Of a DNA stretch of 64,000 nucleotides, positions 11,631 to 56,007 are shown in pieces. The number at the start of each line of letters is the position of its first letter. Position 1 is the stretch's first letter. The notes beneath the pieces are model-generated. The model was not told the origin of the DNA, did not search any database, and saw only the letters and a program-made list of their open reading frames with translations. Position numbers and translations under genes: made by a program. The DNA is from Arenicellales bacterium. Its GTDB lineage: Bacteria; Pseudomonadota; Gammaproteobacteria; Arenicellales; JAJDZL01. The stretch covers positions 1,280,340 to 1,344,339 of the forward strand of contig OZ246969.1 of assembly GCA_965232345.1 (NCBI GenBank), given 5' to 3'.

Positions 11631-11663
11631 ATGATCCGGGCAACGCCTGACTCTGTTGCGAGT

Positions 11664-12580: not shown

Positions 12581-12730
12581 TTGAAATTGGAGCACACGCT
12601 GTTCGGGGAAACTCTCTGTTCCCCGGCCGTTTCGCATCACCATCACCAGATTGGAGAACGGCTCGGAATCAGTCCGAAAGCCGAGCATGCTGTCATTTTC
12701 TACAGACTCATCGGTGAGCAGATTGAATGA
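12581..12730 (+). pseudogene. Relic copy of the last ~50 codons of fbpC
   Basis: Roughly three quarters of the bases over its best-aligned ~125 nt match 11481-11630, judged by eye. The homologous frame reads ...ETLCSPAVSHHHHQIGERLGISPKAEHAVIFYRLIGEQIE* versus fbpC ...EILYCLADSHHNHNVGEWIGISPNVEHVVIFNKRNGEQLE*. The stop codon position is conserved and stops lie upstream. Confidence 0.65.
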
Positions 12731-12784
12731 ATTTCGCTTGAAATTGCCGCGGTTTGCCCCAAATGGTTAATTGAGGAGCCGCTT

Positions 12785-22016: not shown

Positions 22017-22044
22017 TTGATTCGATCTGACTCCTCTATATAAT
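22017..22044 (+). promoter_or_regulatory. Putative sigma70 promoter for the riboswitch-tonB transcript
   Basis: TTGATT (22017-22022), a 16-nt spacer, then TATAAT (22039-22044). It sits ~12 nt upstream of the first riboswitch helix. Confidence 0.4.
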
Positions 22045-22055
22045 CGCTGACAGCA

Positions 22056-22216
22056 GTGGTTCCCGAATCCGGGAAGCAATATGGAACAAGGTAAGACAAT
22101 CCAATGCCTTGGCTGCCCCCGCAACTGTGTGCGGTAGTGACTGCTCATTGATGCCACTGGGAAACTGGGAAGGCTGAGCAGGAACCTAGACCCGCGAGCC
22201 AGGAAACCTGCCATTG
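22056..22216 (+). promoter_or_regulatory. Cobalamin riboswitch (classical AdoCbl type)
   Basis: Contains GGTTCC...GGGAAGC, GGTAAGACAATCC, GCTGCCCCCGCAACTGT, GCCACTGGGAAACTGGGAAGGC and the B12 box AGCCAGGAAACCTGCC, in the canonical order. Confidence 0.8.
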
Positions 22217-22479
22217 CCAGCGTTGCCCAACCGCCAAACGGGGTGTTTCGGCGGGACGGAAGCCCGTTATCGGTGGCGCGCCGAATTTTGCTGGAATTTT
22301 GCGACCGTACATCGAGATATGGGATTCTGTTCTTATACTGCCATCAAATTGGCTTCTGCGGATTGCCTGCAAGAGCTGAGCTCAACGCTAAAGTTCATCT
22401 TGATCAGACTATGCCGTATTGACGCGCAGTGTGTTCTATCGTAAAAATTCCTTGAACTTCATGTCGACCTGCAGTACCT

Positions 22480-25476: not shown

Positions 25477-26730
25477 ATGCCATTCCTGTCTCTTCTTGAT
25501 GATCGGGCCAAACCTAAAGGTTCCAGAGACCCGCTTGGCTTTGAAATGATTTGGACACATTATGGGCGGCAGGTAATCGGCAATCTTACGACGATCACAA
25601 ATTCGTTGACGAATTTCGCTGTTGCCATTCTCGGATTCCATTGGGCAAATGAAATTTGCAAAGATCTGCCGGATTCAGATCGGCACACCAAAGTTCGAGA
25701 TACCTTTCTTCGCTACGAGCAGGTGGTTGCTTATCTGCGCTTTCTGTCTGAAGATACTGGCAGCATCATGGGCATTACACGGGTCATTCGACGCATGAAG
25801 GATGATCAATCACAAGTCAAGCTTGGCATTGGAAATGAAGAGCAGATTCTCAGTGACCAAGTCAGCTACGGACTGTGGGGCTTGTATTCCTCAGCGATGG
25901 ATGCCACCAGATTGATCAAGGGAAATGATAGGATTCCTATAGATCAGGGACTGGTTATCGCGAAAAGAATTGAAGCTAAGCTGGAAAAAAAACAATTGAC
26001 TGATCTGATTAAGAGTAAGAAACCAGTGTCGAAGAGTGAATTGAATGAGTTGGCAACTGCTTTTCGCGACGCCATCAAATCCGAAAAGGTAAGAGAAAGT
26101 CTACGAGATGCCTTGCTGAAAGGAACGGAGAATACTCAACTGCAGCAAGCGCTCTGGTCTTGTACTCAAGAAATAGCTGAACGCAAAGAGGCGGTCAACA
26201 GTGTTGCAGACTTTATCGATAAAGTAAAGAGTTGTGATCCTGATTCAGAGTTGGCTGAGCGGCTTTCCGAAATTGAACGGGTTGAGCGAGTGCTGGTTGC
26301 AGCTAACAACATCTTCAACTATTGTCGTCGGAAGGATGGCTCAAGGATTGATGAAATAGTGGGTGCCTTGAAGCAACATTACAGCCATCATCACATGTCG
26401 GAATTACCGAGACTCGATGGTTTCCCAAAATCACTTGGTAATCAGCAAATCAATCTCCTGAATAAACTAATGGAGACATTGAGGCAGTGTGATTACGCCG
26501 ACGTTATTCGATGGCTCCTCGAACTGAATCAGTTCGTAATGAAACGGCGAGACGGCGCGCCTTGGGTACATTTGGAGAACGACAAAATTCTCCGAGTCAA
26601 AGTGCCAAGTGAAACGGCGTCTTTGCTTGATCCGCACGAACTTGAGAGCCAGTGGGACTACGACTATTTCATCGGATCTTACATCACAGTCGCAAATCAG
26701 GGATTCAAGCTGGGATGGAAAACGCGGTAG
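25477..26730 (+). CDS. Hypothetical protein, ORF-A of the PLD/SNF2 operon (no recognisable domain)
   Basis: 417 aa. N-terminus MPFLSLLDDRAKPKGSRDPLGFEMIWTHYGRQVIGNLTTITNSLTNFAV. The remainder looks predominantly helical and charged. The 3' end overlaps the ORF-B start. Confidence 0.7.
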   Translation: MPFLSLLDDRAKPKGSRDPLGFEMIWTHYGRQVIGNLTTITNSLTNFAVAILGFHWANEICKDLPDSDRHTKVRDTFLRYEQVVAYLRFLSEDTGSIMGITRVIRRMKDDQSQVKLGIGNEEQILSDQVSYGLWGLYSSAMDATRLIKGNDRIPIDQGLVIAKRIEAKLEKKQLTDLIKSKKPVSKSELNELATAFRDAIKSEKVRESLRDALLKGTENTQLQQALWSCTQEIAERKEAVNSVADFIDKVKSCDPDSELAERLSEIERVERVLVAANNIFNYCRRKDGSRIDEIVGALKQHYSHHHMSELPRLDGFPKSLGNQQINLLNKLMETLRQCDYADVIRWLLELNQFVMKRRDGAPWVHLENDKILRVKVPSETASLLDPHELESQWDYDYFIGSYITVANQGFKLGWKTR

Positions 26731-28760
26731 TATCAGATCAGTTGATTCAACGGCTGGCTGACCGAAAGGTAAAGGCGGCAGTATTCACTACATTCAATTT
26801 CGAGCCGGAGTTTTTCGATCTTGAGGTGGTTCCGCTCCTGCTGCCTGGAAAGAATCAATTCTCCTCTCATGCGCCAATCAAACTGTTCCAGGTACGCGAA
26901 ACCTTGCGGGAATCGTCGATCGCTTTGGAGGTATTTTTCGACCTGAAGATATTTCGTAAATCTACCTGTACCTCACCTGGAATGGAATACCTGTCTCATG
27001 GTGTTCATCGCGGAAATAGCGCCTTTCATCCTAAACTTGCATTCATTCTCGTTGACGACGAAACAACAGAACGTGAAGTTCTTTTGGTCGGGGCCGGTTC
27101 CAACAACCTTACGATGGCAGGCTGGTGGGACAATATTGAATGCGCGCACTGGGAAACGGTTGATCCCCAGAGTGTCGATACTAAATTCCTTGAGCAACTG
27201 AAAGCTGATGTGCAGTGGTTGAAAAACGAGCGGATGTTGTCGTCCGAAGACGATCGCTCAGCATTGGATCAGGTGGACAGATTTCTGAACGAATGTTCTG
27301 GCAGCCAGGCTTCTGGGGCTGACATAGATTTCTTTTACTACGGCATAGCGGACAGCAATCAGTCCGGCAGATTTGTTGGATACGCAGAAAACGAAATGAA
27401 AAGAATTCTTTCGCGGCACAGAAACTGGACGCTGGAGATCATATCTCCGTTCTTTTCAGAGGATAAGCATAGTGATTTGCATACACGGTTTTTTGACTTG
27501 GGTGTGCGCGAAATTCATATTTTTCTCCCAAAAAATCAGGAAAACGAAGCCGTATGCCACCGGGATTACTATGACTTTATCAATGAGCAGTCAAATATCC
27601 ATTGGGCAGAGTGGGAAAATTCCGTAGCTAGTTCAATCGGTCTCAGTGGAAGAGCGTTTCGTCATCTGCATGCGAAAATCTATCACTTTTACAACCAGAC
27701 TGAATCGTGGGTATTTGTGGGCTCTGTAAATTTCACGTACAAGGCGTTTAACGAAAATATCGAGGCTGGATTTTTTGTGAAACTGCCCAATCCGAATCCG
27801 CTTTTGACAGCGATAGCAGATACCAGTGCCATAGACAATTTCGATCCGCGACAGGAAGAGACTCATGTTGGTGAAGAGGAGGCATCAGCGGAACCAATTC
27901 CGATCATCGACCTGTCCTACGACTGGTTGAAAAAGTCGTTGGCCGGCATAACCGAACCAGAAAAGAATTACAGGATCAGCATACTTTCACCGGAAAGCAA
28001 TAGCGTAGTCAGTGACTGGCTGATCACTGGAAGCCGATGTCAATATGATGGAGACACGACTCAGTTGGAGTTGCTTCTGAAAGGCGGTTCGTTTGTGACA
28101 GTACGCGGGTATGACAGTCAAACCAAAGAACCATTTCCTGATCACTTGCTGATGATCAAACAGACGAACTGGAGCCATAAACCATTGGAGCTGCCGAATA
28201 TATCCCCTCAACAAATTTTGGCGATCTATACTGGCATGTCACATGAACAACGTCAGATGCTGCTCATGGACGCTCAAATGCGTCACTTGATATTGAATGG
28301 GGAGGGAGGTGAAATTACCTTGTCAGCTGAACCATTTACGGAGTACCAATTCTTCAGTGAGTACGCGGAGATATTTCACTCACTGAAACGCTTACGCCAC
28401 CGAATGATTGAAGCGAAAAGAGCTGGCGATGAAAGTTCGTTCAATTATTACCTCACCGGTACAGGCATTGACAGTCTGCCAACTTTTTTGGACAGAATTC
28501 AAGATGAGAATTTCAAAATCAGCAAGGTGTCTGCCTACCTCATTTTGTTGTGCGCCAAGGAAATTTATCAAGAACCCGCGCTTTCCGATTGTCATGGAGT
28601 GGCGAAAGAATTGATTAAAACGGAAGTGAACATCACGAAAATCAAGAATTCTGATGCGATACAGCTTGAGGGGCTAGAAACTGAACAACGAGCAAATTTC
28701 TTTACTTGGTTCGAAACACAGTTTTTCAGAGACTATAAGCCGGTCAGGGAGTCACCATGA
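26715..28760 (+). CDS. Phospholipase-D/HKD superfamily nuclease-like protein, ORF-B
   Basis: 681 aa from ATG 26715 (track ORF starts at 26652). Two HKD-type motifs: FHPKLAFILV...VGAGSNNLT (about aa 105) and HLHAKIYHF...FVGSVNFTYKAF (about aa 317). The C-terminal ~300 aa has no motif I recognise. Confidence 0.8.
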   Translation: MENAVVSDQLIQRLADRKVKAAVFTTFNFEPEFFDLEVVPLLLPGKNQFSSHAPIKLFQVRETLRESSIALEVFFDLKIFRKSTCTSPGMEYLSHGVHRGNSAFHPKLAFILVDDETTEREVLLVGAGSNNLTMAGWWDNIECAHWETVDPQSVDTKFLEQLKADVQWLKNERMLSSEDDRSALDQVDRFLNECSGSQASGADIDFFYYGIADSNQSGRFVGYAENEMKRILSRHRNWTLEIISPFFSEDKHSDLHTRFFDLGVREIHIFLPKNQENEAVCHRDYYDFINEQSNIHWAEWENSVASSIGLSGRAFRHLHAKIYHFYNQTESWVFVGSVNFTYKAFNENIEAGFFVKLPNPNPLLTAIADTSAIDNFDPRQEETHVGEEEASAEPIPIIDLSYDWLKKSLAGITEPEKNYRISILSPESNSVVSDWLITGSRCQYDGDTTQLELLLKGGSFVTVRGYDSQTKEPFPDHLLMIKQTNWSHKPLELPNISPQQILAIYTGMSHEQRQMLLMDAQMRHLILNGEGGEITLSAEPFTEYQFFSEYAEIFHSLKRLRHRMIEAKRAGDESSFNYYLTGTGIDSLPTFLDRIQDENFKISKVSAYLILLCAKEIYQEPALSDCHGVAKELIKTEVNITKIKNSDAIQLEGLETEQRANFFTWFETQFFRDYKPVRESP

Positions 28761-31700
28761 GCATTAGACCGATCGATCTGGATACAGCGCGAGAATTGCT
28801 TGATTTCTCAGGTGGTGACCAGGATTTGATCAATCTGGGAGAGCAGCAGCTCAAAGGCACCGTCGCACTTCACAACATGATCGCACACCCAGAAATAGGT
28901 GTGGGGTATCTCGCTGATGAAGTCGGGATGGGCAAGACCTATATGGCACTCGGTGTTGTTGCATTGATGCGCTATTTCAATCCGGCTTTACGGGTCCTCT
29001 ATATCTGCCCGAGTCGAAACGTACAGGAAAAATGGTATTCAAGAGAGTACCTGAATTTCTGCAAGCACAATGTCAAAGTAAGCCACTTCCGAATCAGAGG
29101 CCCTGACGGAAAACCGGCAGCACCAGCCATCAGCTGCCGCAGTGTCACCGAATTGATCCACCACGCAACGACTGGTTTTCACGCAGATTTTTTTGTTCGC
29201 ATGAGCGCTTTCAGCATAGCGTTGAGCAAGGATGATGAAAAAGCATGGAAAGCCAAGTTGGAAGAATTGCATGAGTTGTGGCCTGCATTCAAGGTTCCGA
29301 AAACTCGCGTAACATCTAGGTCAGTCAAAAATCGCTATGCATTGGCACTCAACGAGGTGTTGCCGGAATTTGACCTGGTGGTGATTGATGAAGCTCACAA
29401 TTTCAAGCATGACCTTGAGAGCAGCGACAGGAACCGCGTACTGTCGACTGCGCTGGGTTTTCGGAAAGCCGAAAACTGTGTAAGCCGCGTCAAGAATGCG
29501 CTCCTGTTGTCAGCCACACCTTACGACAGAGTTATCAACCAATTGTGCAATCAGCTGAAGCTTGTTGGGAAGGGTGACTTACTGCCTGAAGATATCACTC
29601 AGAAAGATAGGGACAGGCTTGAACAGTGCTTGTCAAAATTCATGGTGCGTCGATTGAACGTCCTTGATATTGCTGGCGAGCCACACACGCGCAACATGTA
29701 CCGAAAGGAATGGCGCTCTGGAGAGAAAGCTGAAATAAATCTTGATTCCGATCTTCAGAAGTTGGTGACAGCGCTTGTTCAGAAAAAAGTGGGCGAGACG
29801 CTTGCGAAAGACGGAGGTTTGCCAAGTTTTCAAACCGGATTGCTCGCGTCTTTCGAAAGTTATGCAGAAACCACCAAATCCGATGATCCTGTAGAGTTTG
29901 ACGGCGACATAGCAGACAAAGGCGGAGTGCATGATGCCCGGGACAAGAATGTAATTGGCGCTATATCAGACAGCTTTATTCAAGCGGACTTGGGAAGAAG
30001 AACTCTGCCGCACCCGAAAATGGATTCGGTATCGGAACAGTTGGCCAAGGAGCTTTTTCAGCGAGGGCGAAAGCAACTTGTTTTTGTGCGTCGAGTAAAG
30101 AGTGTGAAGGAGATTAAGCGGAAACTGGATGATCTTTACAATAGTGATCTTGCTGAATATATCCGCAGTGAGTTGAAGTCGTTCCCCGAAGAATTGAGTT
30201 TACTTGAAGAAGTAGTCGAAAATTATTGGCGAATTAGCCATTCCCAGGATGAAGATATTTCGGGTGGTGAATTTATCGCTGATTACTTTGAAGAAGGCAC
30301 AGACGAGGTGGATGACAAACAGCCCCCCAAGAAAGATACATTGTTCGCTTGGTTCTTTAGAGGAGAATTACCACCTGAGTTAAGCCAACTATTCAAAAAC
30401 AAACGAGGAGGTTTCGCTGAACCTAATTCGATGCGGAAAGGACTGGTTGCAAAAAATCAAAGTAGTTCTCTGCTGATGGAGATCAACTGGGTGAACCTGT
30501 TGGTTCAGTGTCAGGGCGAGGACATCGACCAATTGCTCAACGACTACGGGGATAAGGTGGCGGATATTGCGAGAGATTTCATTAGCGCTTCTGACAAAAG
30601 CAACTGGTTTGTGGAATTCAATGCTTGTCAATATGCATTCGTGCACTGGTACTCCGAGTATAAACAGTTACCAAAGCTTGAGACACTAGCGAATTATTTG
30701 AAGCCAAAATCCGCCTCTGACAAGAAAAATTCATATTCTGCTCAACGATGCGGTGCCTTGCTGCAAACCTATACGTTCTATTGCGCCTTGCACAAATCCA
30801 ACCTGCTGGATTCACTGTTTCCTCACCTGAAATCAATTCTAACTGACCTGTTGAATAATGGAAAAGAAATCTCTGAGGAACAGTTGCAGAAGCTGAGTAT
30901 TCACGGTGCCCTTTTGTCATTGTGCCTTAGAACCGGACATGGTTTGATCGACTTGTATCTTGCACGAATTAGACAGGGTGCGGACAAACCAACCGCCGAA
31001 TCTGGCGGTGCATGGATGGATGATTTGGTTTCAGTATTGAATCGGCAGTCGACCCAAAATGACTTCAACACATATTGGGAGTGTCTGAAGTTATCTGAAA
31101 ATCTTGACTTGATCATCAAGACTAATTTTCCCGAAATCTACGACAAATCACCCCAAGAATATCGACTGTTTCTGGCACGAGCCTTGAGTCCTCTTGTTCC
31201 CATAATGGGGGCGACAGGCGATACAGCATCGACACGGTCGGCTCAGGCGCGCAAGTTTCGAATGCCAGGTTATCCTCTGGCGCTCATCAGTACGGATGTA
31301 TTTCAAGAAGGAGAGGACCTGCATACATTTTGTGATTCTGTAATGCACTACGGATTATCTGGAACACCAGTGAGCATAGAGCAGAAGATCGGTCGAGTTG
31401 ATCGAGTGGGATCACAAGCCGAACGTCGGCTGTTGAAAATCAAAACAGGTGCGGCATCAACAGACGATTTGATTCAGGTTTACTTTCCCCATGTCAAAGA
31501 AAGCATTGAAGTTTTTCAGGTGCGCCAACTGTGCCACAACATCAATGACTTCTTAAAATCTCTGAATTCAGTCGGTTCAATGGCCAGCGCGAATCAGGAC
31601 CGGGTCAACCCTGACGAGGAGATCATCAATCGGTCGGCTGTCCCAGATCAAATCGACAGTCTTCTGAAATCTCCCTTTGAACCAAAAGTGCTGAAAAGTG

Positions 31701-32599
31701 AGCCGCAATTCAACCAAATTGAATGCATCCGAGCTGCAGAACAACGCACTCAGAGCGTAACCAGAAATATTGATCAGCGATTGAAAGAGATTCTCGACGA
31801 AGAAGAGGTATTGGATGCGGAAGACATTGAGTTAGTGAGAGATGATGGCACGAAAATTCCAGTACGGATCAGCTTGAAGTCCGCGCGTGCCAGCGGTGAA
31901 ATTCTGCTCCATGTTCTTTGGAAAGGCGAAACTGTCTCGTTGCGCGAAATGAATCGAGCTGAGTTGAATGAACATATGCAATCTGCTCGCAGGCGGATTT
32001 ACCGGACACACGCGAGCGAAATCGGGAATGGTGAAATTCAGCTTGGTTATGACTCCGAACTGCTTGTGGGTGATGAAACTGCGACTAGTTTCGATGAGAT
32101 AAAGACGTTTTTGAATCGATTTGAGCGAACCGAATATTTCGAACATTACCTTAAACCCACATCCGAGTTAATCCGGCAGTATTGGGAAAAAGCCCAAACT
32201 GATGGGCAAAAAGAATTTGATCAGGGCCTCGTACTAATGGAAGGACTCGAAACGGACGGGGCATTAGAACTGACGTTTCTGTTTGGTTCGCAAAATTATG
32301 TACGTACTCATCAAGTGCGAATATATGAGTTGGACGGGCGCTGTGTTTTTTTCGCTGAGGCAGCTTCTGCGGAAAGGGTAAATGATTTAACTTGCCAGCA
32401 AATTATTAAGCTCACCTGGCTCTACAATCGGAATGTCGATCTTGCGGAGTTCATGCTTGATGACAAAGGAACTCTGGTTGGCAGAGTAGTCCACCCAGTC
32501 CGCGGACTCGACTACAAAGAATTTGCCTATTGCGCTTATACGCTGGCCGTAGCTACAGATCGTCTTGAGTATCTCATTGATAATCGCGACAGATATTGA
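28757..32599 (+). CDS. SNF2/SF2-type helicase-like ATPase with a large inter-lobe insertion and a ~390-aa C-terminal extension, ORF-C
   Basis: 1280 aa. Walker A DEVGMGKT (aa 54-61), DEAH box VIDEAHNF (aa ~209-216), LSATPY (~251-256), TDVFQEGEDLH (~846-856), QKIGRVDRVGS (~876-886). ATGA overlap with the ORF-B stop. Confidence 0.85.
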   Translation: MSIRPIDLDTARELLDFSGGDQDLINLGEQQLKGTVALHNMIAHPEIGVGYLADEVGMGKTYMALGVVALMRYFNPALRVLYICPSRNVQEKWYSREYLNFCKHNVKVSHFRIRGPDGKPAAPAISCRSVTELIHHATTGFHADFFVRMSAFSIALSKDDEKAWKAKLEELHELWPAFKVPKTRVTSRSVKNRYALALNEVLPEFDLVVIDEAHNFKHDLESSDRNRVLSTALGFRKAENCVSRVKNALLLSATPYDRVINQLCNQLKLVGKGDLLPEDITQKDRDRLEQCLSKFMVRRLNVLDIAGEPHTRNMYRKEWRSGEKAEINLDSDLQKLVTALVQKKVGETLAKDGGLPSFQTGLLASFESYAETTKSDDPVEFDGDIADKGGVHDARDKNVIGAISDSFIQADLGRRTLPHPKMDSVSEQLAKELFQRGRKQLVFVRRVKSVKEIKRKLDDLYNSDLAEYIRSELKSFPEELSLLEEVVENYWRISHSQDEDISGGEFIADYFEEGTDEVDDKQPPKKDTLFAWFFRGELPPELSQLFKNKRGGFAEPNSMRKGLVAKNQSSSLLMEINWVNLLVQCQGEDIDQLLNDYGDKVADIARDFISASDKSNWFVEFNACQYAFVHWYSEYKQLPKLETLANYLKPKSASDKKNSYSAQRCGALLQTYTFYCALHKSNLLDSLFPHLKSILTDLLNNGKEISEEQLQKLSIHGALLSLCLRTGHGLIDLYLARIRQGADKPTAESGGAWMDDLVSVLNRQSTQNDFNTYWECLKLSENLDLIIKTNFPEIYDKSPQEYRLFLARALSPLVPIMGATGDTASTRSAQARKFRMPGYPLALISTDVFQEGEDLHTFCDSVMHYGLSGTPVSIEQKIGRVDRVGSQAERRLLKIKTGAASTDDLIQVYFPHVKESIEVFQVRQLCHNINDFLKSLNSVGSMASANQDRVNPDEEIINRSAVPDQIDSLLKSPFEPKVLKSEPQFNQIECIRAAEQRTQSVTRNIDQRLKEILDEEEVLDAEDIELVRDDGTKIPVRISLKSARASGEILLHVLWKGETVSLREMNRAELNEHMQSARRRIYRTHASEIGNGEIQLGYDSELLVGDETATSFDEIKTFLNRFERTEYFEHYLKPTSELIRQYWEKAQTDGQKEFDQGLVLMEGLETDGALELTFLFGSQNYVRTHQVRIYELDGRCVFFAEAASAERVNDLTCQQIIKLTWLYNRNVDLAEFMLDDKGTLVGRVVHPVRGLDYKEFAYCAYTLAVATDRLEYLIDNRDRY

Positions 32600-32895
32600 G
32601 ACGATAAGGCTTCGATATTGACAATGATGTATACACAACTGTGCCAAAAAAAATTAATCGACAGGAGCGCACCATACCTAATCCGGAAATGTGAAGACCC
32701 TGCAATTTCAGGAAAGTTTTAAAGGGTTATTTGCCCAACTGAACCAATGAATTTCATGGGATACTGGGAACAAAACCACCAAAGCAACAGATTAAACGCA
32801 ACTGAAACAGCACAGTCCTGCATTTTGAATGGAGGCATTTGTGATTTTGTGATTTTGCAGATTTTTTTACACGAGATTAGCTTGAGGCAGGACGC

Positions 32896-33723
32896 ATGCG
32901 AACACTATTTCGATTAGTAACGTTACCTTTGATCGCACTCTGCTTGACGGTCACTGCAACTACGTTCAGTGATGAGGCTCTGGCAGCCAGAAAATTTAAT
33001 GATGTGAAACAAGGCTGGTCTTTCAATAAGGGCTTGCCAGCAAACTTCAAGAAATATGGATACAGAATTGTGAAAAAAGCAGATGGCCATCCAGTGCGCG
33101 ATGGAAAAAAATCCATGCGGTTTGAGGTGCGAGCAGGCGATTGCAGCTGGTCGTCTGGATGGAGTGACTGCAAGAATGATCGGGAGCGACACGAGCTTCA
33201 AAGCCGAAAAAGGTGGAGCGGGGGTGAGTACTGGTATCACTGGTCTATCTTTCTGCCGGAAAACTACCCTGTAATCTACCCTGTCAAGGTTGCTTTAGCG
33301 CAGTTCCATCAGAAAGATGCGCATGTTGTGTGGATGTTTCAAAATGGAAATGGTGGCTATTTCGTCGACAATCAAACGGTTGGTCATACTATTGATAATC
33401 CAAGAATTCTGTCGGACGGGGAAATGCGGGGCAAGTGGTTTGACATACTCGTGCATGTTCGCTGGACGCACAAGAAAGAAGGATTTTTCCGCGTCTATGT
33501 GAATGGTGAAACCAAACCGCGTTACAAATGGACTGGACAGACCAAAACAAAAGGTAAAAAAGTCTATTACAAGTTTGGGATCTACCGCACGTATGTCAGC
33601 TGGAAGCCTGGCGGACCTCCAACGCAAGTCGTTTACTACGATCATGTCAATCGGGCGAAAAAGTGCGAGAGAGCCACCCGATATTTCGACTGCGACGCAA
33701 TCGTGGCCAACGAAAGCAAATAA
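32896..33723 (+). CDS. Secreted concanavalin-like/polysaccharide-lyase-family protein (tentative)
   Basis: 275 aa with signal peptide MRTLFRLVTLPLIALCLTVTATTFS. The pattern RHELQS...YWYHWSIFLP...LAQFHQ...W...YKFGIYR recalls Pfam Polysacc_lyase-type beta-sandwich proteins. Assignment is by pattern only. Confidence 0.5.
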   Translation: MRTLFRLVTLPLIALCLTVTATTFSDEALAARKFNDVKQGWSFNKGLPANFKKYGYRIVKKADGHPVRDGKKSMRFEVRAGDCSWSSGWSDCKNDRERHELQSRKRWSGGEYWYHWSIFLPENYPVIYPVKVALAQFHQKDAHVVWMFQNGNGGYFVDNQTVGHTIDNPRILSDGEMRGKWFDILVHVRWTHKKEGFFRVYVNGETKPRYKWTGQTKTKGKKVYYKFGIYRTYVSWKPGGPPTQVVYYDHVNRAKKCERATRYFDCDAIVANESK

Positions 33724-33990
33724 CCTAGCAATAGTTTACCGAGTTCAGCGAAATCACTGCGGAACGGCTCTCTTTGTGATTTCGACAGATTGATTGTAAC
33801 TCATTGACTCAATGGATTTATGACCTGCACGACCCGAGCGGGTCAGGCTTCGTGATGGGGCGGATGCGCGTGTGACCTAACTCGCCCGCCCAACGCTTCA
33901 GATCCAGCGTCTTGTACAGCTTATTCTGGACGCCGGACCGGCTCAAGAGTGTCATCTGCATCTTCGGCGCGCCGTTCCTGCGCGATAAAT

Positions 33991-35241
33991 CTACAGCCAA
34001 AACGATGCGATCGGTAGTGCGAAAAACTGATTGCTGAACTGAACAGCTTTCTTTCCTGGATGGACCACGATTCCGCATTTGAATTTCTTCCCAATGTCGC
34101 CTTTCAGCGCTTCCAGACTCCGGAAGTTTCTTGAAGAGATATTGCTTGTGGATTTCACCTCGATTCCAACAATTTCGCCGCGCTGTGACTCAAGCACGAA
34201 ATCAACCTCCTGCCCCGAGCTTGTCCGATAGTGATACAAACGAGTGCGCGTTGACGAGAATGTTGCTTGTTTGGCCAGTTCCACCGCCGCGAAGTTTTCC
34301 ATCACCCTGCCCATCTGCGTCCGATCTGCAGACTGAACAAACCCCAGCTCAGCATTCAGCAGGTGCAGCAGAAGATTGAGATCGCAAAGGTAGACCTTCG
34401 GTGTCTTGATCAGCCGTTTGCCGAGATTGGGTGTCCAAGCCGGCACCGAAAGTGTCAGGAACAGACTTTCCAGCAATATCCGATACTTCTTGACGGTTAT
34501 GTGATTCAGAGCCAAATCCCGCGCCAGAGATGATTCGTTCAGCAGTCCGCCGGCGCGCGCGGCCAGCAGACTCAGCATATCCGGCAGACTCGCCAATTTC
34601 TGCACTTCCAGCAAAGAGTGAACATCCCGATACAGAACAGTCTGAAGGTAGCTGTCGCACCACTCCTGCCGCAGCGCTCTGTCTCCGATCGTCAGCAATT
34701 CAGGAAATGTCGCGTCTGCCAGAACCTGCTCCAGATCAGACTCAGACGCATCGCCAAAGTGAAGTTCGCTGCAGAAGACTCTGTCAATAAAGCTCCCCTC
34801 TCTATTCTTGTCCAGCTCGCGCGCCGACAATGGCAGGAGCGTATGCGTGGACATTCTTCCAGCCAGCGCGTCAGAAAGCTGTGGCAATGCCATCACATTG
34901 GCGGACCCTGTGAGCAGAAATTTTCCGCGCCCGCCGCCATCAGTCTGACGATTTTCATCAACGATAATTTTCAGCGGTCGAAATAGCTCAGGCACCAGCT
35001 GAATCTCATCCAGCACCGCATTGCCTCTCAGACTGCGGAGGAAGGCTTCGGGGTCATGCTGTGCGGCGGACCGAGTCTGCAGGTTGTCGAAAGTGAAGTA
35101 ATTCGCCTTGTGTCGGCTTTCCGAAATTCGCATGACCAAAGTTGTTTTGCCAGATTGCCGGGGTCCGGCAACATAAACCGATGGAAATGCTGAGAGTGAA
35201 GCAACAATCCTGTCCTCGATCAGGCGGTCGATGTACTGCAT
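33991..35241 (-). CDS. AAA-family ATPase (AAA_14 + DUF4143 architecture)
   Basis: 416 aa. Walker A GPRQSGKTT near the N-terminus and LLTGSA further on. The C-terminal region is typical of DUF4143 proteins. Confidence 0.8.
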   Translation of the reverse strand: MQYIDRLIEDRIVASLSAFPSVYVAGPRQSGKTTLVMRISESRHKANYFTFDNLQTRSAAQHDPEAFLRSLRGNAVLDEIQLVPELFRPLKIIVDENRQTDGGGRGKFLLTGSANVMALPQLSDALAGRMSTHTLLPLSARELDKNREGSFIDRVFCSELHFGDASESDLEQVLADATFPELLTIGDRALRQEWCDSYLQTVLYRDVHSLLEVQKLASLPDMLSLLAARAGGLLNESSLARDLALNHITVKKYRILLESLFLTLSVPAWTPNLGKRLIKTPKVYLCDLNLLLHLLNAELGFVQSADRTQMGRVMENFAAVELAKQATFSSTRTRLYHYRTSSGQEVDFVLESQRGEIVGIEVKSTSNISSRNFRSLEALKGDIGKKFKCGIVVHPGKKAVQFSNQFFALPIASFWL

Positions 35242-35763
35242 TGAATTGGTAAATTCGTTAACTTGATATAAGATAATCTTATACTATACTGTAATATTAT
35301 CTGACCTGATCAAGATTTCGAAACTTTATCCAGAACGCTTGGACTGACACCAATATTGACTCAGACATCAAAAAAAATCGTAACTTATTCTCCGTTTTCC
35401 GGATTGCAAAGACAGATCGAATTTCCACGACCCACTTTATCCAATTGCACACTACTGAAGAATCTAACCACTTGTGGCTGTCGGAGCTTGTTCTGTCAAA
35501 GGTGGTTTTTGGCTCCGGATGGCGCAGCATCCACGCGGGTGAACAACTGAACAAAAAGTATGACTTGATCGTTGAGAAATTCGTGAGGTGCTAGTGCCAA
35601 ACATGGCACTGTCTGAACAATCTCTTGCTCATGCGGAGCTGTTGCTTCCAGTTGACCTGAAGACTGCTCCTAAGGCGAAACTATGAGCATGGGAACAGCG
35701 AAGAAAAGAGCTCTTTTGGTGTTTCCGCAAAATTCAGTTGCTGAAATCTGCTCTCATATCAGC

Positions 35764-36183
35764 CTATGCGGTCCAAGGATTGATAGTGGCCAATCCGGCC
35801 GTCTCGAACGGCAATGTGTCCCGCGTCGCAACGATCATGGAATTAGCCGCGGCGGTTGCCGCGATGAATCCATCGGATACTGAAATTGCCTGCCCAGCTG
35901 ATCGCGCTTTCGCCATCAGTTCAGCATAAGCTTGAGACTCAACCAGAGTGAACGATAGCACACGACCGGCGAATCTCGGAATCATAACCTTCTCCAGATT
36001 GTCGTGCAACAGCTCTCGGCGACGACCTTCCGGAAGAGTCTGTACACCAGATCGAAGCTCAGCGACTGAAACAGCAGAAATGTACAACGTTTCTAACGCC
36101 TGTGCGTCAAGCCATTGGATAACCCGCGGTTCTGGAACGAGGCGCAACGGTTCTGAAACCACGTTCGTATCAACCAGAATCAT
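35764..36183 (-). CDS. vapC: Type II toxin, PIN-domain ribonuclease VapC/FitB
   Basis: 139 aa starting MILVDTNVVSE with a PIN acidic-residue pattern. 4-nt overlap with the upstream antitoxin gene. Confidence 0.9.
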   Translation of the reverse strand: MILVDTNVVSEPLRLVPEPRVIQWLDAQALETLYISAVSVAELRSGVQTLPEGRRRELLHDNLEKVMIPRFAGRVLSFTLVESQAYAELMAKARSAGQAISVSDGFIAATAAANSMIVATRDTLPFETAGLATINPWTA

Positions 36184-36431
36184 TCGAAATCAATCGGTTT
36201 GACTGACTCTCTATCGCGTCTGGTAAAGGTTTCGAATTCCTCGTCAGTCAATTCAATTTGACGGCCAGCATCAAATAGCAGCGACCCCAGCCCAATTCGG
36301 TCTTTCGACAAAACCGCGGCTTCCAGGATGGCGCGCACCTCAGCTTCAGTGCTGCGGTTGCGCTTTGCTGCACGCACACGAAGTGCGCGATGCACCTCGT
36401 CAGGTACATTGCGAACGGTAAGAACAGCCAT
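36180..36431 (-). CDS. vapB: Type II antitoxin, ribbon-helix-helix (FitA/VapB/Arc type)
   Basis: 83 aa. MAVLTVRNVPDEVHRALRVRAAKRNRSTEAEVRAILE is a typical RHH antitoxin N-terminus. Confidence 0.85.
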   Translation of the reverse strand: MAVLTVRNVPDEVHRALRVRAAKRNRSTEAEVRAILEAAVLSKDRIGLGSLLFDAGRQIELTDEEFETFTRRDRESVKPIDFE

Positions 36432-37082
36432 AATTCAACAGTCATAGTTGCTTTCAGTGCATGCATAATATCACAATGACAGCATTCTATGTGTTTGAAT
36501 TCAGACTCCCTGACCTCGGCTGAGTTGCCATGTTGGTGTTTTCGGCATAGATCGAGTGACGGTGTCCGCTTGGGGGCGGATTCTTGGTTGCCAACAGCGA
36601 TCGACAGTTGCATGACGAGGCTCGAATGACTGTTTTGCATAACATGCATTTTCAGCCTATCGCGAAATAGATCAAGACTGATTTGCGAAGTTTCTTCCAA
36701 ATCAAGTCAATAGAATGAATGCTTTGAGAAAATCAGCCGAAATCTCTCAATTTATCGAGGTCAGGAAGTCTCAATGCACTGCAGGTTTGGGAACAAGACA
36801 GAATTATTCCGGCGTCCAGTGATGGGGTTGGAACTCGGACATCTGAACTGATCTCATTGACCGAATCTGCTGCTTGACTCCAAGCGCCTCGCCAGACACT
36901 GTCAGCCAGGCTTATTGGGCCGCTCTAAGTTGGCTGTCAATTTGCTGCACATCATGCAATATCAGGAAAGTATAGCAACCAATCGATAACGCACCGCCTG
37001 ATCACAATTCGGATGACCGCGCGAAAATTGCGAAAAAAATGTTGGATCAGAAAAATTGCACTAAAATACGGTTTCGCTGTCT

Positions 37083-37269
37083 GAGGTGTTTGTTGCCGAA
37101 TCGATCCGAATTTCCGGCAACACTTTAAATGGGAAGTCTGGTGAGTGAGGTCATATAACCGGATCAACTCTCGCAATTCCAGCGCTGCCCCCGCAACGGT
37201 GATCAGCATTCATGCTGTCAGTCCGAAACCGCCCTCTTTCAGGCCAAGAATTTCGTTTTAGCGGAGGGC
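37083..37269 (+). promoter_or_regulatory. Cobalamin riboswitch, short variant type (cassette copy 1)
   Basis: Contains AATGGGAAGTCTGGTGAG...CAATTCCAGCGCTGCCCCCGCAACGGTGATCAGC...GCTGTCAGTCCGAAACCGCCC, followed by hairpin GCCCTC...GAGGGC. It lacks the GCCACTG...GGGAAGGC extension. Upstream of cobO. Confidence 0.75.
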
Positions 37270-37558
37270 TTCAACGTGGCATCAAGAATTCCCACCGCCT
37301 GAACTTCTCCCAACGCAGCGCAGATTCCAGCTGAGAGGTTTTCTTGCATTCACTCGGAAAAGTTTACGCCGCAGCCCGGCGAACGCGAAATTCTCTCACT
37401 CGTGTGCTGTCGCTGATTTCGATACCAGCCGCAATTGCCCCCAGCACACCACTGAATGCAACCATTGCCGCCTTGCGGCACCGGAATCACCGCGCCCGCG
37501 TGAATCGCTCGCAACGGTTCTGAGATGGACGCGATTGACATGACAGCCGTGGACAGCA

Positions 37559-48680: not shown

Positions 48681-51028
48681 CTATCAACACCCCACACTTG
48701 ACAAAGCGTTCTGACTGTCATTTTCGGTTTTCTGTCTCTCTCTTGCCTTGTAGCTGTTGATCGCCTGCACGGTGTGCATCAGTTTCTGAGTCGCTCTCCA
48801 TAAGATCTTGGTGCCCGGCACCGGCTGTCTTCTCGTCGGTCTGAACCCGACCGCCCGGCCGAGTCCGACCACGTACTCGCGGACCGTGAGGTCCGGCGGC
48901 GCGCGCGGCGGGCTATGGCGGTCGATCTCGTACAGCATCACCTGGCGCGCCTCCAGTTCGTCGGCGGGCACCGCCCCGGCCGCGGGCCGGTCCGGCTCGC
49001 ATTTCGCCAGCCGCTGCAGGTCGAACACCCGCCAGGCGGTGATGGCGTCGAAGGCCAGGCACTTGAGCAGGTCCTCCGCGTCGTCGAAGCGGCGCGCCTC
49101 CGACTGGCAGCCGCTCTTGAGCACCCGGAAGAACTCCTCGATCCCCCAGCGCGCCTCGTACCACTCGCAGATGCGCACCGCGTTGTCCGCGTCGGCGCCG
49201 CCCTCGGAGCACAGCAGGAACCAGTTCAGCGGCTCTTTCACCCCGGCCGGCGGCGACTCCTCCAGCACCGACACCGCGGTCACCGGCACACTGTCGGTGC
49301 TGGCGCCCGGCGCCTTCAGCTGAACCTCGGCGATGCGCAGCGTCACCTTGGCGGTGCGCGCGTCGCGGGCCCGCCTGCCGCCCTGCGCGCCGATCTTGAT
49401 GGTGCGCGTGGCCGCGGCCGGCAGCGACTCCACATGCGCGCGAAGGTCCTCCGCATGGCCGTCCTCATCGACCACCTTGCGCCGCCGCGAGCCGTTGCGC
49501 CGCACCAGCAGACCGACTTGGCCGCGCAGCGCCCGCTGGCGCTCGAACAGCCCCCAGATGTCGGACTCGCGGTCGCCCACGCTGATCACCCGGGTCTTGG
49601 CGCCGCAGGCCGCCGACAGCTCGGCCGCGGTCTCAAGCCCCTCCACCCAGCGCCGCGACTCCTTCAGATCGTCGTCGGCCGCGCAGCGCGGCCGGAAGCT
49701 GCCGTCGATGTCCAGCACGCCCAGCACCCGGCCGCCCGGCGAGAATGCCACATTGGCGTGCGCGTAGATGCCCTGGGCGGTGCCGCCGATCTTCATCAGG
49801 CCCTGGGTGGTGCCCTTCAGCGTGTCGTAGTTGAGGCCCGTGGTGTCCTGCACCGCCAGCACCACCTCGTGCAGCTGGCCGCGCGACACCGTCGCCTGGC
49901 GGTGCGATTCCAGAATGTCGTCCATGGTCACATTATCGCTCGAAAGCAGTCGGTAGGCGGCCTTGCGGCCGGCCTCGGTGGCGAACACCTGCGGTGTGCG
50001 GGCGCCCGGCTCGCGTTGCCAGGCGCGGCCCATCGCGCGGATCCTTTTGCCCACCCGGCCGTCCGGATGCGTCGAGGCGCCGTACTCCACGTCGGTCCAG
50101 TGCGCGTCGTCCGCCAGATGCGGCTCGCGCGCCGGCCGGAAGCGCGCCGCCGCCTGCGCGCACAGCCCCTCCCGCCAGCCTTCCGCCAGCGGCCGGACGA
50201 ACACCTGCTTGCGCTCGCCCCCGGCACAGCGCCGGCCGGAGGTCTCGCCGACCAGCTCCCAGCCGGCCGCGCGGTAGCTCTCGCCGCTGTGGGACCGGTC
50301 GATGTGGGTGTACGCCAGCAGCGGCTCCGCGCCGTACGCCCGCAGCCAGTCGCCGGGCAGACGCTCAAGCGCCGCGGTCAGCGCCGCCGACGCCAGCCCG
50401 CGCACCCGCACCTCGGGCAGGATCAGGAAGCGCGCGTTGTTGACCACCAGAGACAGATTCTCGGCGCGCTGGCGCTGGCTCCAGCCGATGAAATCGTCGC
50501 GCGCCCGCTCATGCCAGCTGGCGGCATGGAATGACAGCCCGCCCACGCGCCCGCAATGCTCGCTCACAATCCAGTACTTGATCGCCGCGCCTGGCAGCCG
50601 CGGCTCGCCGCGCGGATGATGCGTCTGCATCATCGCCCGCCACTGCCGGCTCTCCTGCGGCGCCACCGGCTCGATGGAGACCGCGCCCAGCCGGGCCAGA
50701 CCGCCGCGCAGCCGGATGGCGTCGGCAAACACCGGAAGCGGCGCCTCGGCCGGCCGCGCGCCGCGCAGCTCCGGCAGCGAGACGCCGCACTCCGCGGCCA
50801 GCTTCGGCAATGCCACAAACGCCTGCGTGACGCACAGATCCCCGCCGGCGTTCAGCCAGCCGGTCTGATCGCAAAGAGCTTTCGCCAGCGCATAGCGGCT
50901 GTACCGGCCGCTTTCAGCCGCCTCCCGAAACCACTCGACCTCCTCACTGCCGAATTGTCGAAGACCAATCTGCATGCGGAGAATTAAATCATCACTGCTA
51001 CCCTTTTGTCAAGTGTGTCTGTTTGATA
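48681..51028 (-). mobile_element. IS4-family (IS50/Tn5-like) insertion sequence
   Basis: Imperfect ~25-bp terminal inverted repeats (CTATCAACACCCCACACTTGACAAA / CTATCAAACAGACACACTTGACAAA). 9-bp target duplication CGAATGGGT at 48672-48680 and 51029-51037. Single transposase ORF. Far more GC-rich than the flanks. Confidence 0.88.
48684..50975 (-). CDS. Tn5/IS50-like DDE transposase with a ~290-aa N-terminal extra domain
   Basis: 763 aa. DDE region [42 protein letters not shown] (Tn5-type YREK signature). The N-terminal part (…[21 protein letters not shown]…NNARFLILP…) resembles what I recall as a DUF4338-like domain. Confidence 0.85.
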
Positions 51029-52170
51029 GCGAATGGGTGCATCTGCTGCACCCTTCGCGATGATCTGCTCGCGGAGGTTTCACGTCTTGCTCAGGAGCGG
51101 CGTTTCGATTACCTGCTCATCGAGTCCACGGGAATCTCGGAACCAATCCCTGTGGCGCAGACTTTCACCTTTGAGGATGAGAACGGGGTGAGTTTGAGCC
51201 AGGTGTCGCGCCTTGATACAATGATTACGGTTGTGGACGCGGCGAACTTCCTGCGGGATTACAACGCCGCCGAGGACCTCCAGGATCGCGGCGAGTCGCT
51301 GGGCGAAGAGGACGACCGCACAGTCACACATCTGCTCATCGACCAGATCGAGTTTGCCGATATCATCGTGCTGAACAAGCTTGATCTCGTCAGCAAAGAA
51401 CATGCGCTTGAGGTTGAGGCCATCGTCAAGGCGCTCAACCCCGGCGCGAAAATCCTCATGGCGACTCGCGGTCAGGTGCCGCTGGATAGCGTATTCGACA
51501 CGGGCCTGTTCGACTACGACAAGGCGGCGAGCTCCGCCGGCTGGATTCGGGAGCTTCAGAATGAGCACACGCCGGAGACTGAAGAGTACGGGATTTCGAG
51601 CTTCACCTACCGCACCTCACAGCCCTTCGACGCTGCGAAACTGTGGACCTATCTGCACCGCAGCGAGAATTGGCGCGGCGTGCTCCGCTCGAAGGGCTTT
51701 TTCTGGGTCGCGGCTGACCATCGAATCGTCTACGAGTGGGCCCAAGCTGGCGGCGTCAGCAATGTGAGCCCCATGGGAGTGTGGTGGGCATCCGTGCCCC
51801 GCGAACACTGGGGGCATCCCGATGGTCAGCGGCCTGACCAGCGCCCTGGCTGGCATCCTCGCTTCGGTGATCGCGCGCAGCAGCTTGTGTTCATTGGCCA
51901 GCAGATGAACGAGGCGAAGATGCGAGCCCGCCTAGACGCGTGCCTGCTCGACAGGCGCTTGGCCGATGCCGGCAGTGAAGCTTGGGAGAATCTGCAAAAT
52001 CCGTTTCCAGAACTTGAGATGATTGAGGGGTCAGCATGACCGATGCCGCCTTATGTGCAGCAGCCTGTCAATAACGCAGCGCTTTTCCAGATGTGCTCGG
52101 TTGACCGCATTCGGATCGCAAAAATAAATTCTGGATCAAAAAATTGCACTAAAATACAAACTTGCTGTTT

Positions 52171-52358
52171 GAGGTGTCTGTTGCCGAATCCGTCCGAATT
52201 CCCAGCAACACTTTAAATGGGAAGTCTGGTGAGCGAAGCCATTCAATCGGATTAACGCCTCGCAATTCCAGCGCTGCCCCCGCAACGGTGATCAGTGTTT
52301 GCGCTGTCAGCCCGGAACCGCCCTCTTTCAGGCCAAGAATTTCGTTTTAGCGGAGGGC
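52171..52358 (+). promoter_or_regulatory. Cobalamin riboswitch, short variant type (cassette copy 2)
   Basis: Near-identical to 37083-37269 and 55596-55783 (AATGGGAAGTCTGGTGAG...GCGCTGCCCCCGCAACGGTGATCAG...GTCAGCCCGGAACCGCCC). Upstream of an ABC importer operon. Confidence 0.75.
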
Positions 52359-52686
52359 TTCAACGTGGCAACTAGATTTCCCACCACCTGAACCCCTCCC
52401 GATGCAGTGCTGATTCCAGCTGAGAGGGTTCCTTGCGCCTATTCGAAAAAGTTCACGCTTCAGCCCGGCAAAGCAGAGGGAGCTGGAGCGCATCCGATCT
52501 TGTCGCCTCATTTGAAGCGGTGTTTGCGCACTCTGCGCGCTCCGCTCGAAACTGAATGCAACGCGCGCCTCGAAAAAGGAAATCCTGCTCTTGAAAAAAT
52601 CTGCCACCATTGAGCCAGCCCGGCGCCCACTGACGGAATCTCCGCAAGGAGCGGATGCCCTGTCCGCGACGCGGGCAAAGGGGCAG

Positions 52687-55446: not shown

Positions 55447-55595
55447 CGGAGCATGAAATCAGGCGAATTATCAAGACCCGCCTGTCGCAGCCTATCAAAA
55501 ATGCAACGCTTGCCCAGATCTCGGATGACCGCGTGCGGATTTCGAAAAAACTGCTGGATGCAAACAAACTGCACTAAAATACGATTTCGCTGTTT

Positions 55596-55783
55596 GAGGT
55601 GTTTGTTGCCGAATCGATCCGAATTCCCGGCAACACTTTAAATGGGAAGTCTGGTGAGCGAGGCCATTCAATCGGATTCGCGCCTCGCAATTCCAGCGCT
55701 GCCCCCGCAACGGTGATCAGCGTTCGCGCTGTCAGTCCGGAACCGCCCTCTTTCAGGCCAAGAATTTCGTTTTAGCGGAGGGC
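55596..55783 (+). promoter_or_regulatory. Cobalamin riboswitch, short variant type (cassette copy 3)
   Basis: Same conserved blocks as copies 1 and 2. Lies ~225 nt upstream of the TonB-dependent receptor gene. Confidence 0.75.
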
Positions 55784-56007
55784 TTCAACGTGGCATCAAG
55801 AATATCCAGCCGCCTGAACTCCTCCCGATGCAGCGCTGATTCCAGCTGAGAGGGTTTCTTGCATTCATTCGAAAAATTTTGCGCCGCAGCCGAGCAACTG
55901 CGCGGTTTTTTCATTTGTGTGCTGATGCTGATTTCAGCTCCCTTCGCTGCAACTCACAAAAAATTCATGTTGTCGCATTGAATTCAAGAGACTCCGAGGA
56001 ACATTCA

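Follow-up and report, generated by a model that had tools for sequence, protein, structure and literature searches.

A cobalamin riboswitch cassette with yvrC-like architecture heads three B12 operons in an Arenicellales bacterium

Cobalamin riboswitch classes, and the ligand selectivities attached to them, are defined by two peripheral elements, P2 and the extension of P6. Class I members carry a P2 loop-stem-loop and a large P7-P11 extension, and class II members have no P2 and a small P6 extension (PMC7367189). The riboswitch of B. subtilis yvrC is an 'atypical' hybrid that joins a P2 arm to a small P6 hairpin (Chan & Mondragon 2020, PMC7367189). Its P2 arm buttresses the binding pocket through a P2-P6 base pair, and the RNA binds adenosylcobalamin (AdoCbl), methylcobalamin (MeCbl) and hydroxocobalamin (HyCbl) in vitro (PMC7367189). 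At M. tuberculosis ppe2, a B12 riboswitch controls an upstream open reading frame (uORF) on which expression further downstream depends (Kipkorir et al. 2024, PMC11260477). Described here is a shortened cobalamin riboswitch, present in three related leader cassettes within a 64,000-nucleotide stretch from an Arenicellales bacterium (GenBank assembly GCA_965232345.1, contig OZ246969.1, positions 1,280,340 to 1,344,339), which is called the window. A clade of bacteria that combines P2 with a short P6 provides a natural set of sequences in which to test how corrinoid selectivity is determined by peripheral elements.

The cassettes are three homologous segments of about 410 bp on the forward strand, at 36972-37383 (c1), 52057-52472 (c2) and 55484-55898 (c3). 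They align together, nearly free of gaps, over about 380 bp from TCGG(A/T)TGACCGC to GCAGCC(C/G)(G/A)GCAA, and identity drops to about 20-40% past the 3' end. Fainter homology reaches some 35 nt further 5' than the start given in the original prediction, to about 36972, 52057 and 55484. Pairwise identities are 81%, 88% and 86% (307/378, 333/378 and 325/380). The cassettes had been called near-identical and alignable almost base for base; the homology is real, and the wording suits the aptamer together with P13 (90-95% identity) and for one invariant block of 52 nt, but it overstates the similarity of the whole. A repeat search of the window ranks the cassettes first, as its two largest families.

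Each cassette precedes genes for B12 metabolism or uptake. Cassette c1 is followed by cobO, genes for a periplasmic binding protein (PBP), a FecCD protein and an ATPase, then cobW, cobN, a chlI-like gene and a VWA gene. The c2 operon encodes the ATPase, PBP and FecCD components of an ABC importer. Downstream of c3 are btuB, cobO, FecCD and ATPase genes, cobU, cobT, cobC and cobS. These are the B12 operons named in the original prediction, apart from cbiB, which does not occur after c3 within the window. The smaller details that it listed, namely a -10-like TAAAAT, the aptamer strings, a GCCCTC/GAGGGC complementarity and a GAGAGG(G)TT end, were likewise found in the cassettes.

Class and structure of the cassette RNAs

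Searches with cmscan match c1, c2 and c3 to RF00174 with 37.2, 41.2 and 40.1 bits (gathering score 31.5) over model positions 1-189; the c1 match covers 37067-37251. RF00174 is the top-scoring family of clan CL00101 for all three copies, cmscan reporting only the best match of a clan. The P7-P11 extension, 60-62 model positions, is reduced to 6-8 nt, and P6 is a hairpin of 29 nt (37197-37225 in c1). Sizeable insertions relative to the model occur in the P2 loop and in L4. The strings GCUGCCCCCGCAAC and AGYCCGRAACCGCC of the B12-box core and four-way junction are present, and a context of btuB, cobO, ABC importers, cobN and cobUTCS fits cobalamin sensing. A fourth riboswitch at 22040-22229 (forward strand), upstream of a gene for a TonB_C protein, is a classical class I member that scores 101 bits. 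It has the full P6 extension, including the GCCACTG...GGGAAGGC element that the cassettes lack, and 8 extra nt in L4. The locus therefore holds two structurally different riboswitch types, as had been predicted, one of them in three copies; the loss of the P6 extension was also foreseen correctly, and the family is RF00174.

A proposed secondary structure was compared, on 22 aligned homologues, with slid pairing partners and with 500 shuffles. It pairs 90% of cells, against 33-43% when partners are slid. Changes on both sides occur in 25 pairs, a number that none of the 500 shuffles reaches (11 +/- 2). Every helix is supported: P1, P2, P3, P4, the stem inserted in L4, P5, P6 and P13. P3, P4, P5 and P6 are paired in 95-100% of cases, so that the P3-P6 four-way junction is retained. 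From P1 to P1, the aptamers occupy 37077-37242 in c1 (P1 strands at 37077-37086 and 37233-37242), 52165-52331 in c2 and 55590-55756 in c3. P1 is an unbroken 10-bp helix in many relatives and has a UUU/UUU interior in the window copies. The extended P2 arm (37091-37122 in c1) ends in a loop, GAUCCG at 37103-37108, that is kept across the clade, and 7 of its 12 pairs show double-sided changes. A hairpin inserted in the L4 T-loop (37145-37174) presents CGGAU at 37160-37164 in its own loop, and 4 of its 7 stem pairs have changed on both sides. P5 and L5 of c1 lie at 37186-37195, and J6/3 with the 3' strand of P3 at 37226-37231.

The window copies vary at 29 of 226 columns. Ten pairs vary, of which seven remain canonical throughout the three copies and one is compensated in full; because the varying pairs mostly stay canonical, all three copies look functional. 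One internal hairpin had been named as the main variable part. This holds for the loop of the L4-inserted hairpin, and the short P6 hairpin varies as well.

Outside the four-way junction, the P13/L13 hairpin (37254-37276 in c1) presents an L13 loop, GCGGAGGGC, at 37261-37269, with equivalents at 52350-52358 in c2 and 55775-55783 in c3. L5 (CCCCCG) can form a kissing loop with the CGG(A)GGG of L13 in 97% of cells, a pairing supported at the level of sequence. The L008 btuB copy has a compensatory C-G to U-A variant, with L5 UUCCCG facing L13 GCGGAGGAC. GCCCTC and GAGGGC had been read as the strands of a platform hairpin. They are complementary, but each half has a better-supported partner, since GCCCTC is the 3' strand of P1 and GAGGGC is the part of L13 that pairs with L5, and the hairpin was dropped.

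Judged from sequence and covariation, the cassette RNAs are RF00174 cobalamin riboswitches with the hybrid architecture known from yvrC, the likeness being one of predicted architecture. They contain the P2 module of class I without its large P6 extension. They contain the small P6 of class II, and a covarying P2 arm of 32 nt where class II has a P2-less J1/3. The pairing of a P2 loop-stem-loop arm with only a small P6 hairpin, both of them covarying here, is that of yvrC. Like yvrC, the cassette RNAs keep the P3-P6 four-way junction and the L5-L13 kissing loop, and yvrC also controls a B12 ABC importer. Unlike yvrC, whose L2A loop is of the GAAA type and whose L4 is compact, they have a 30-nt L4 hairpin, a longer P2 and complementary loops. 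They lack the P8-P9 linker hairpin, and only about 12 nt lead from P1 to P13. The yvrC riboswitch of Firmicutes uses a Rho-independent terminator, whereas the platform of the cassettes appears translational and their hosts are gammaproteobacteria.

Resemblances to the two main classes are partial. Class I riboswitches such as those of E. coli btuB and T. tengcongensis share the P2 arm, the B12-box core, the L5-L13 kissing loop and the full-length model match, and the cassettes precede btuB and cob genes as class I members do. The cassettes differ from class I in the 6-8-nt loop that replaces P7-P11, a J6/3 shorter by 1 nt and the additional L4 hairpin, and they score 37-41 bits against the 101 bits of the class I copy in the same window. 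With class II (Cbl-IIa env8 and Cbl-IIb; RF01689 and RF01482), they share the short P6 without peripheral extension and the L5-L13 kissing loop. Class II has only J1/3 where the cassettes have their long covarying P2 arm, and RF00174 outscores the class II models.

The shortening of J6/3 relative to the RF00174 consensus (GGA-ACC compared with GGAGACC) is found at 37226-37231, 52315-52320 and 55740-55745. The stretch CCGGAACC is almost invariant across all homologues. Since J6/3 lines the ligand pocket, its length may matter for selectivity.

Distribution and origin of the cassette

Loci of relatives, numbered with L, come from Arenicellales-like metagenome-assembled genomes (MAGs). A pattern scan of genomes yielded two Arenicellales MAGs, and contigs with BtuB homologues of 50-60% identity yielded more; no relative was found with a BtuB above 60% identity to that of the window. 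A first pattern scan of metagenomes gave no matches, and a looser pattern gave one contig, L010. Across the window and 12 loci of relatives, a model built on the P2-P4 region finds 24 matches, of which 23 are full copies and one is a degenerate remnant. The variant is therefore clade-wide and not peculiar to the window. Low-scoring RF00174 matches in the relatives (39-60 bits) lie upstream of btuB and of an operon that encodes a CobN-like protein, ExbB and DUF2149. Their classical matches (92-100 bits) lie upstream of the gene for a TonB_C protein, an arrangement shared with the riboswitch at 22040 in the window. At L015, a more distant locus whose BtuB is only 45% identical, a classical riboswitch of 110 bits stands before btuB. 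Going by predicted structure and gene context, the shortened variant serves a clade of Arenicellales-like gammaproteobacteria as its standard B12 sensor and would control btuB and the CobN-like/ExbB operon there.

The riboswitch-led operon with CobN-like, ExbB/MotA and DUF2149 genes is conserved in L005, L006, L008, L009 and L011-L013 (for example, L005:4445-9646), between the TonB_C gene and btuB. Its CobN-like protein has about 1486 amino acids and an N-terminal signal or transmembrane segment. The operon resembles an uptake-associated system more than a cobaltochelatase, and the window retains only a fossil of its start. Two relatives have unusual btuB leaders. That of L003 (7228-7520) has an aptamer of the cobN type followed by tandem L13-like modules, TGTTGTAGCGGAGGGCTTCAACGAGG and TGTTGTAGCGGAGGGCTTCTATGTG, the second being of the btuB type; it looks recombinant and would offer a choice between two kissing partners. 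In L007, a full variant riboswitch stands at 8968-9154, about 850 nt upstream of btuB, and a degenerate remnant (P2-P4 only) at 9756-9845 adjoins the gene, scores 30 bits with the custom model and has no Rfam match. This arrangement would fit an ongoing replacement of the leader.

The three window copies group as a single clade in a distance tree and are each other's closest relatives. This clade adjoins the relatives' cobN-type copies (83-88% identity) and is far from the btuB-type copies (67-74%). The proteins encoded downstream are old paralogues, with identities of 50% for CobO, 37-40% for FecCD, 32-34% for the ATPases and 23% for the PBP. Because these proteins are merely 23-50% identical, the cassette alone must have been copied or converted. 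Informative sites are mosaic along its length, c1 agreeing with c3 at both ends and c2 with c3 in the L4-P6 part, which suggests gene conversion. The earlier proposal that the cassette was duplicated or homogenized as a unit fits all of these observations.

The donor leader can be named from a start site. An SD-like (Shine-Dalgarno-like) GAGAGGG with a TTG (GAGAGGGTTTCTTGCA) aligns with the SD sequence and called ATG of the CobN-like gene in L005 (GGAAGAGTTTCATGCA), and all three window copies carry this CobN-type start. The uORF that begins there in c1 is collinear with the N-termini of CobN-like proteins, with NATIAA at codons 38-44 in both; the uORF peptides of c2 and c3 have no similarity to CobN-like proteins, which counts against the assignment. 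It is concluded from the alignments that the cassette represents the leader and first codons of a CobN-like operon. Cassette c1 probably stands at the ancestral site, its CobN-like gene having been replaced. It is further concluded that c2 and c3 are copies, and that c3 displaced the btuB-type leader that most relatives carry. By copying, gene conversion or both, a CobN-type leader with its ribosome binding site and start codon would now head three unrelated operons. The window thus illustrates clearly how a riboswitch cassette can come to stand, through copying or conversion, before operons unrelated to one another, still bearing the relic start site of the gene it once served.

Two accounts would remove part of this picture. 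The original prediction placed the cassette RNAs in class II (the AdoCbl-variant type, RF01689) with a preference for MeCbl or HyCbl, so that two classes would sense two forms of cobalamin. Such an account can draw on the loss of the P6 extension from all three copies, on the occurrence of two structural types side by side in the locus and in relatives, and on the short J6/3. The class II reading fails because the P2 arm, whose absence defines that class (PMC7367189), is present and covarying, with compensatory changes in 7 of 12 pairs; moreover, RF00174 outranks the other families of the clan. AdoCbl, MeCbl and HyCbl are all ligands of yvrC, the known RNA that combines P2 with a short P6, and the missing extension therefore does not reveal a ligand preference. 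Class IIb is likewise without the extension but selective for AdoCbl. A class II identity with MeCbl/HyCbl preference is improbable on these grounds, and the hybrid assignment is preferred. The other account holds that the cassettes are independent orthologous riboswitches, kept similar by purifying selection only, with no duplication or conversion. The aptamer core is indeed strongly conserved throughout the clade, as its 83-88% identity to other cobN-type copies attests. However, the similarity among window copies spans a promoter region and 130 nt of platform, neither of them shared with relatives, and the three copies form one clade. Most btuB leaders of relatives belong to the other subtype and have a different platform, whereas all three window copies carry the CobN-type start. 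Selection without copying has very little chance of being the explanation, and a cassette spread from a CobN-type leader remains the preferred origin.

The promoter region contains a -10-like TAAAAT about 10 nt 5' of P1 in c1 (37062-37067), c2 (52150-52155) and c3 (55575-55580). TAAAAT, TATAAT, TACAAT or TAGAAT is found at the same spacing from P1 in 11 of 15 aligned copies, and the four btuB-type leaders of relatives have no such box there. This conserved box is the sole indication of a putative sigma-70-type cassette promoter, and a simple promoter scan did not call one, which are weak points of the cassette model.

Several features of the surroundings may be added. Between the TonB_C gene and c1, where relatives have the CobN-like operon directly, the window holds an island (25477-36700) that encodes a PLD-family nuclease, a 1280-residue SNF2/ResIII helicase, a polysaccharide lyase, an AAA/DUF4143 ATPase, a PIN-domain protein and open reading frames without Pfam match. 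On the 5' side of c2 are a 763-codon frame on the reverse strand (48684-50975), with matches to DruA (Druantia) and a transposase DNA-binding domain, and a cobW-like gene on the forward strand (51023-52039) whose match begins at profile position 57, maybe because it is truncated N-terminally. Both hint at rearrangement at the c2 junction. A short patch, ACTGAATGCAAC (ATTGAATTCAAG in c3), recurs 3' of the cassettes at 37449-37462, 52547-52560 and 55972-55983 in leaders that are otherwise unrelated. In c1 it falls within the stretch collinear with CobN-like genes, and its TGA ends the uORF in c2 and c3.

A predicted loop-loop contact and a proposed expression platform

The distal loop of P2 (AUCCG) is complementary to the loop of the L4 insert (CGGAU), and both rank among the best-conserved unpaired stretches of the variant. 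Both loops are bounded by supported stems, and a complement of 5-7 bp exists in 15 of 18 distinct sequences. Where the loops differ, pairing is often kept: GCCCGA faces UCGGGC in L007 and AACCCG faces CGGGUU in L014, and G-U intermediates occur in c2 (GUCCGA with UCGGAU), L001a (GGUCCGA with UCGGAUU), L002 (AUCCG with CGGGU) and the btuB copy of L005 (AUUCG with CGGGU). In a column test, 70.8% of cells are paired, compared with 17-46% when partners are slid. Realignment with a covariance model left the L4-insert loops of btuB-type copies 1 nt out of register, and this weakens the test. Because both stems are independently supported, the two loops would be presented for pairing. It is rather likely that they kiss and clamp P2 to P4 across the short P6, a contact that would brace the core in place of the missing P7-P11 extension. 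No description of an L4 insertion or of a P2-L4 loop-loop contact in cobalamin riboswitches was found in a literature coverage that is incomplete. If real, the clamp is a further element to test for corrinoid selectivity; if not, what is left is a neat but ordinary set of paralogous B12 riboswitches.

Two elements 3' of P13 appear to form the expression platform. A pyrimidine-rich candidate anti-SD element, CCUGAAC(U/C)(U/C)CUCCC, lies at 37298-37313 in c1 (CCUGAACUUCUCCCAA), at 52387 in c2 and at 55813 in c3. It has two alternative partners, L13/P13 (GGAGGG..UUCA..GUGG) and the SD-like GAGAGG with its TTG, located at 37331-37346 in c1 (TTG at 37344), at 52420 in c2 and at 55846 in c3. The latter element aligns with GGAAGAGTTTCATG, where the CobN-like gene of L005 has its SD sequence and called ATG. 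In constrained folds and duplex energy calculations, the anti-SD and SD-like elements pair over 8-9 bp in each copy, and the differences between c1 and c2/c3 compensate. In relatives, the counterpart of the anti-SD element pairs around the start of the CobN-like gene.

The TTG opens a uORF in each cassette. In c1 it has 59 codons (37344-37523) and stops 35 nt before the cobO ATG at 37559. The frames of c2 (52433-52555) and c3 (55859-55981) precede the ATPase start at 52591 and the btuB ATG at 56008. All three stop 26-35 nt 5' of the real genes, which begin 150-215 nt 3' of the SD-like element, and control of these genes must therefore be indirect. A terminator-like hairpin with six T residues lies inside the c3 uORF (55885-55912).

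A working model can be drawn from these pairings. With B12 bound, L5 would kiss L13; the anti-SD element, thus released, would pair with the SD-like element and mask the TTG at which the vestigial uORF begins. Without B12, L13/P13 would pair with the anti-SD element, and the exposed SD-like element would allow the uORF to be translated. The state of the uORF might be relayed to the real genes by Rho-dependent polarity, by the terminator-like hairpin of c3 or by translational coupling. Blocking of the uORF by B12, with polarity or termination further downstream, is what we infer from these modelled alternatives. The scheme resembles that of ppe2 in that the start region of a short upstream frame, and not that of the main gene, would be occluded, and in its proposed dependence on uORF translation. 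It differs in that the ppe2 relay has been shown experimentally and its uORF overlaps the ppe2 start (AUGA), whereas the relay proposed here is read from sequence and the cassette uORFs stop short of the genes and resemble relics of a gene that has been displaced. The spread of the cassette bears on how translational riboswitches might be re-used through a uORF or polarity relay.

The contact and the relay can each be explained away. For the loops, the complementarity could be inherited sequence or an alternative fold of the unbound RNA, and the L4 hairpin a neutral or independent decoration. Several results weigh against the clamp in this sense: AUCCG and CGGAU are common to most copies by descent; the five double-change pairs are matched by 16 of 500 shuffles, which amounts to moderate support only, and the paired percentage is reached by 156 of 500, leaving the column test indecisive; and the complement is missing in L001b and weak in L005n and L010. 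RF00174 also tolerates L4 insertions, as the 8 extra nt of the copy at 22040 illustrate. Mere inheritance sits less well with the conservation of both loops, with changes that mostly stay paired or pass through G-U, and with two independently supported stems. It is accordingly judged unlikely, though not negligibly so, and the kissing contact is preferred. For the relay, RNA structure might control transcription directly through Rho loading or the c3 terminator, the TTG frame being a silent fossil. The uORF model is weakened by the TTG start codon itself and by frames whose openness is at best weakly significant (shuffle p 0.24, 0.40 and 0.25 for the three copies, product 0.024, with other frames similarly open), a result too weak to claim selection for an open uORF. 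Duplex energies for the two alternative anti-SD pairings are modest and beat shuffles only marginally (p 0.015-0.19). Unconstrained minimum free energy folds also pair the SD-like element, with the 3' strand of P1 or with UUUUAGC, and the ON state therefore depends on co-transcriptional folding. The long leaders past the cassette SD and the T-tailed hairpin of c3 would suit direct control. Nevertheless, a terminator scan found none in c1 or c2, which at once tells against a terminator relay and removes intrinsic termination as a general output. The SD-like element is the focus of the conserved alternative pairings, and every uORF stops just before the real start. A possible antiterminator suggested by RNAalifold, the 5' strand of P1 with 37352-37392, does not surpass shuffles (p 0.03, 0.11 and 0.38) and was rejected. 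Direct transcriptional control is thus a doubtful alternative, and uORF blocking is the preferred mechanism.

As a whole, an explanation that unites diverged copies of a hybrid-riboswitch cassette, the P2-L4 contact, an origin from a CobN-type leader and a uORF relay is moderately favoured. The cassette RNA is a probable clade-wide relative of the yvrC hybrid architecture with an extra tertiary clamp. A wider reading, which is tentative, would join three propositions: an undescribed riboswitch subclass, a different corrinoid selectivity and a portable cassette that overwrites leaders. Structurally, the subclass would be a relative of the single-member yvrC type in which a kissing complex of P2 with the L4 hairpin replaces the P7-P11 brace. 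Functionally, the variant coexists with a classical class I switch in every genome of the clade and therefore may differ in its selectivity or sensitivity for corrinoids, so that the B12 regulon would respond at two thresholds. In evolutionary terms, the unit would have overwritten leaders to stand three times in the window, and the leaders of L003 and L007 look like replacement intermediates.

Two minor observations remain. At L001:760-830, the hairpin of L13 with the anti-SD element is followed by TTTTTT and resembles an intrinsic terminator, a logic opposite to that of the proposed model; this T run occurs in L001 only, and other copies are without it. The window also contains another direct repeat, of 129 nt and 81% identity (about 165 nt aligned), at 11504-11632 and 12604-12732. 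It contains no tRNA, and its copies are probably the 3' ends of two paralogous genes.

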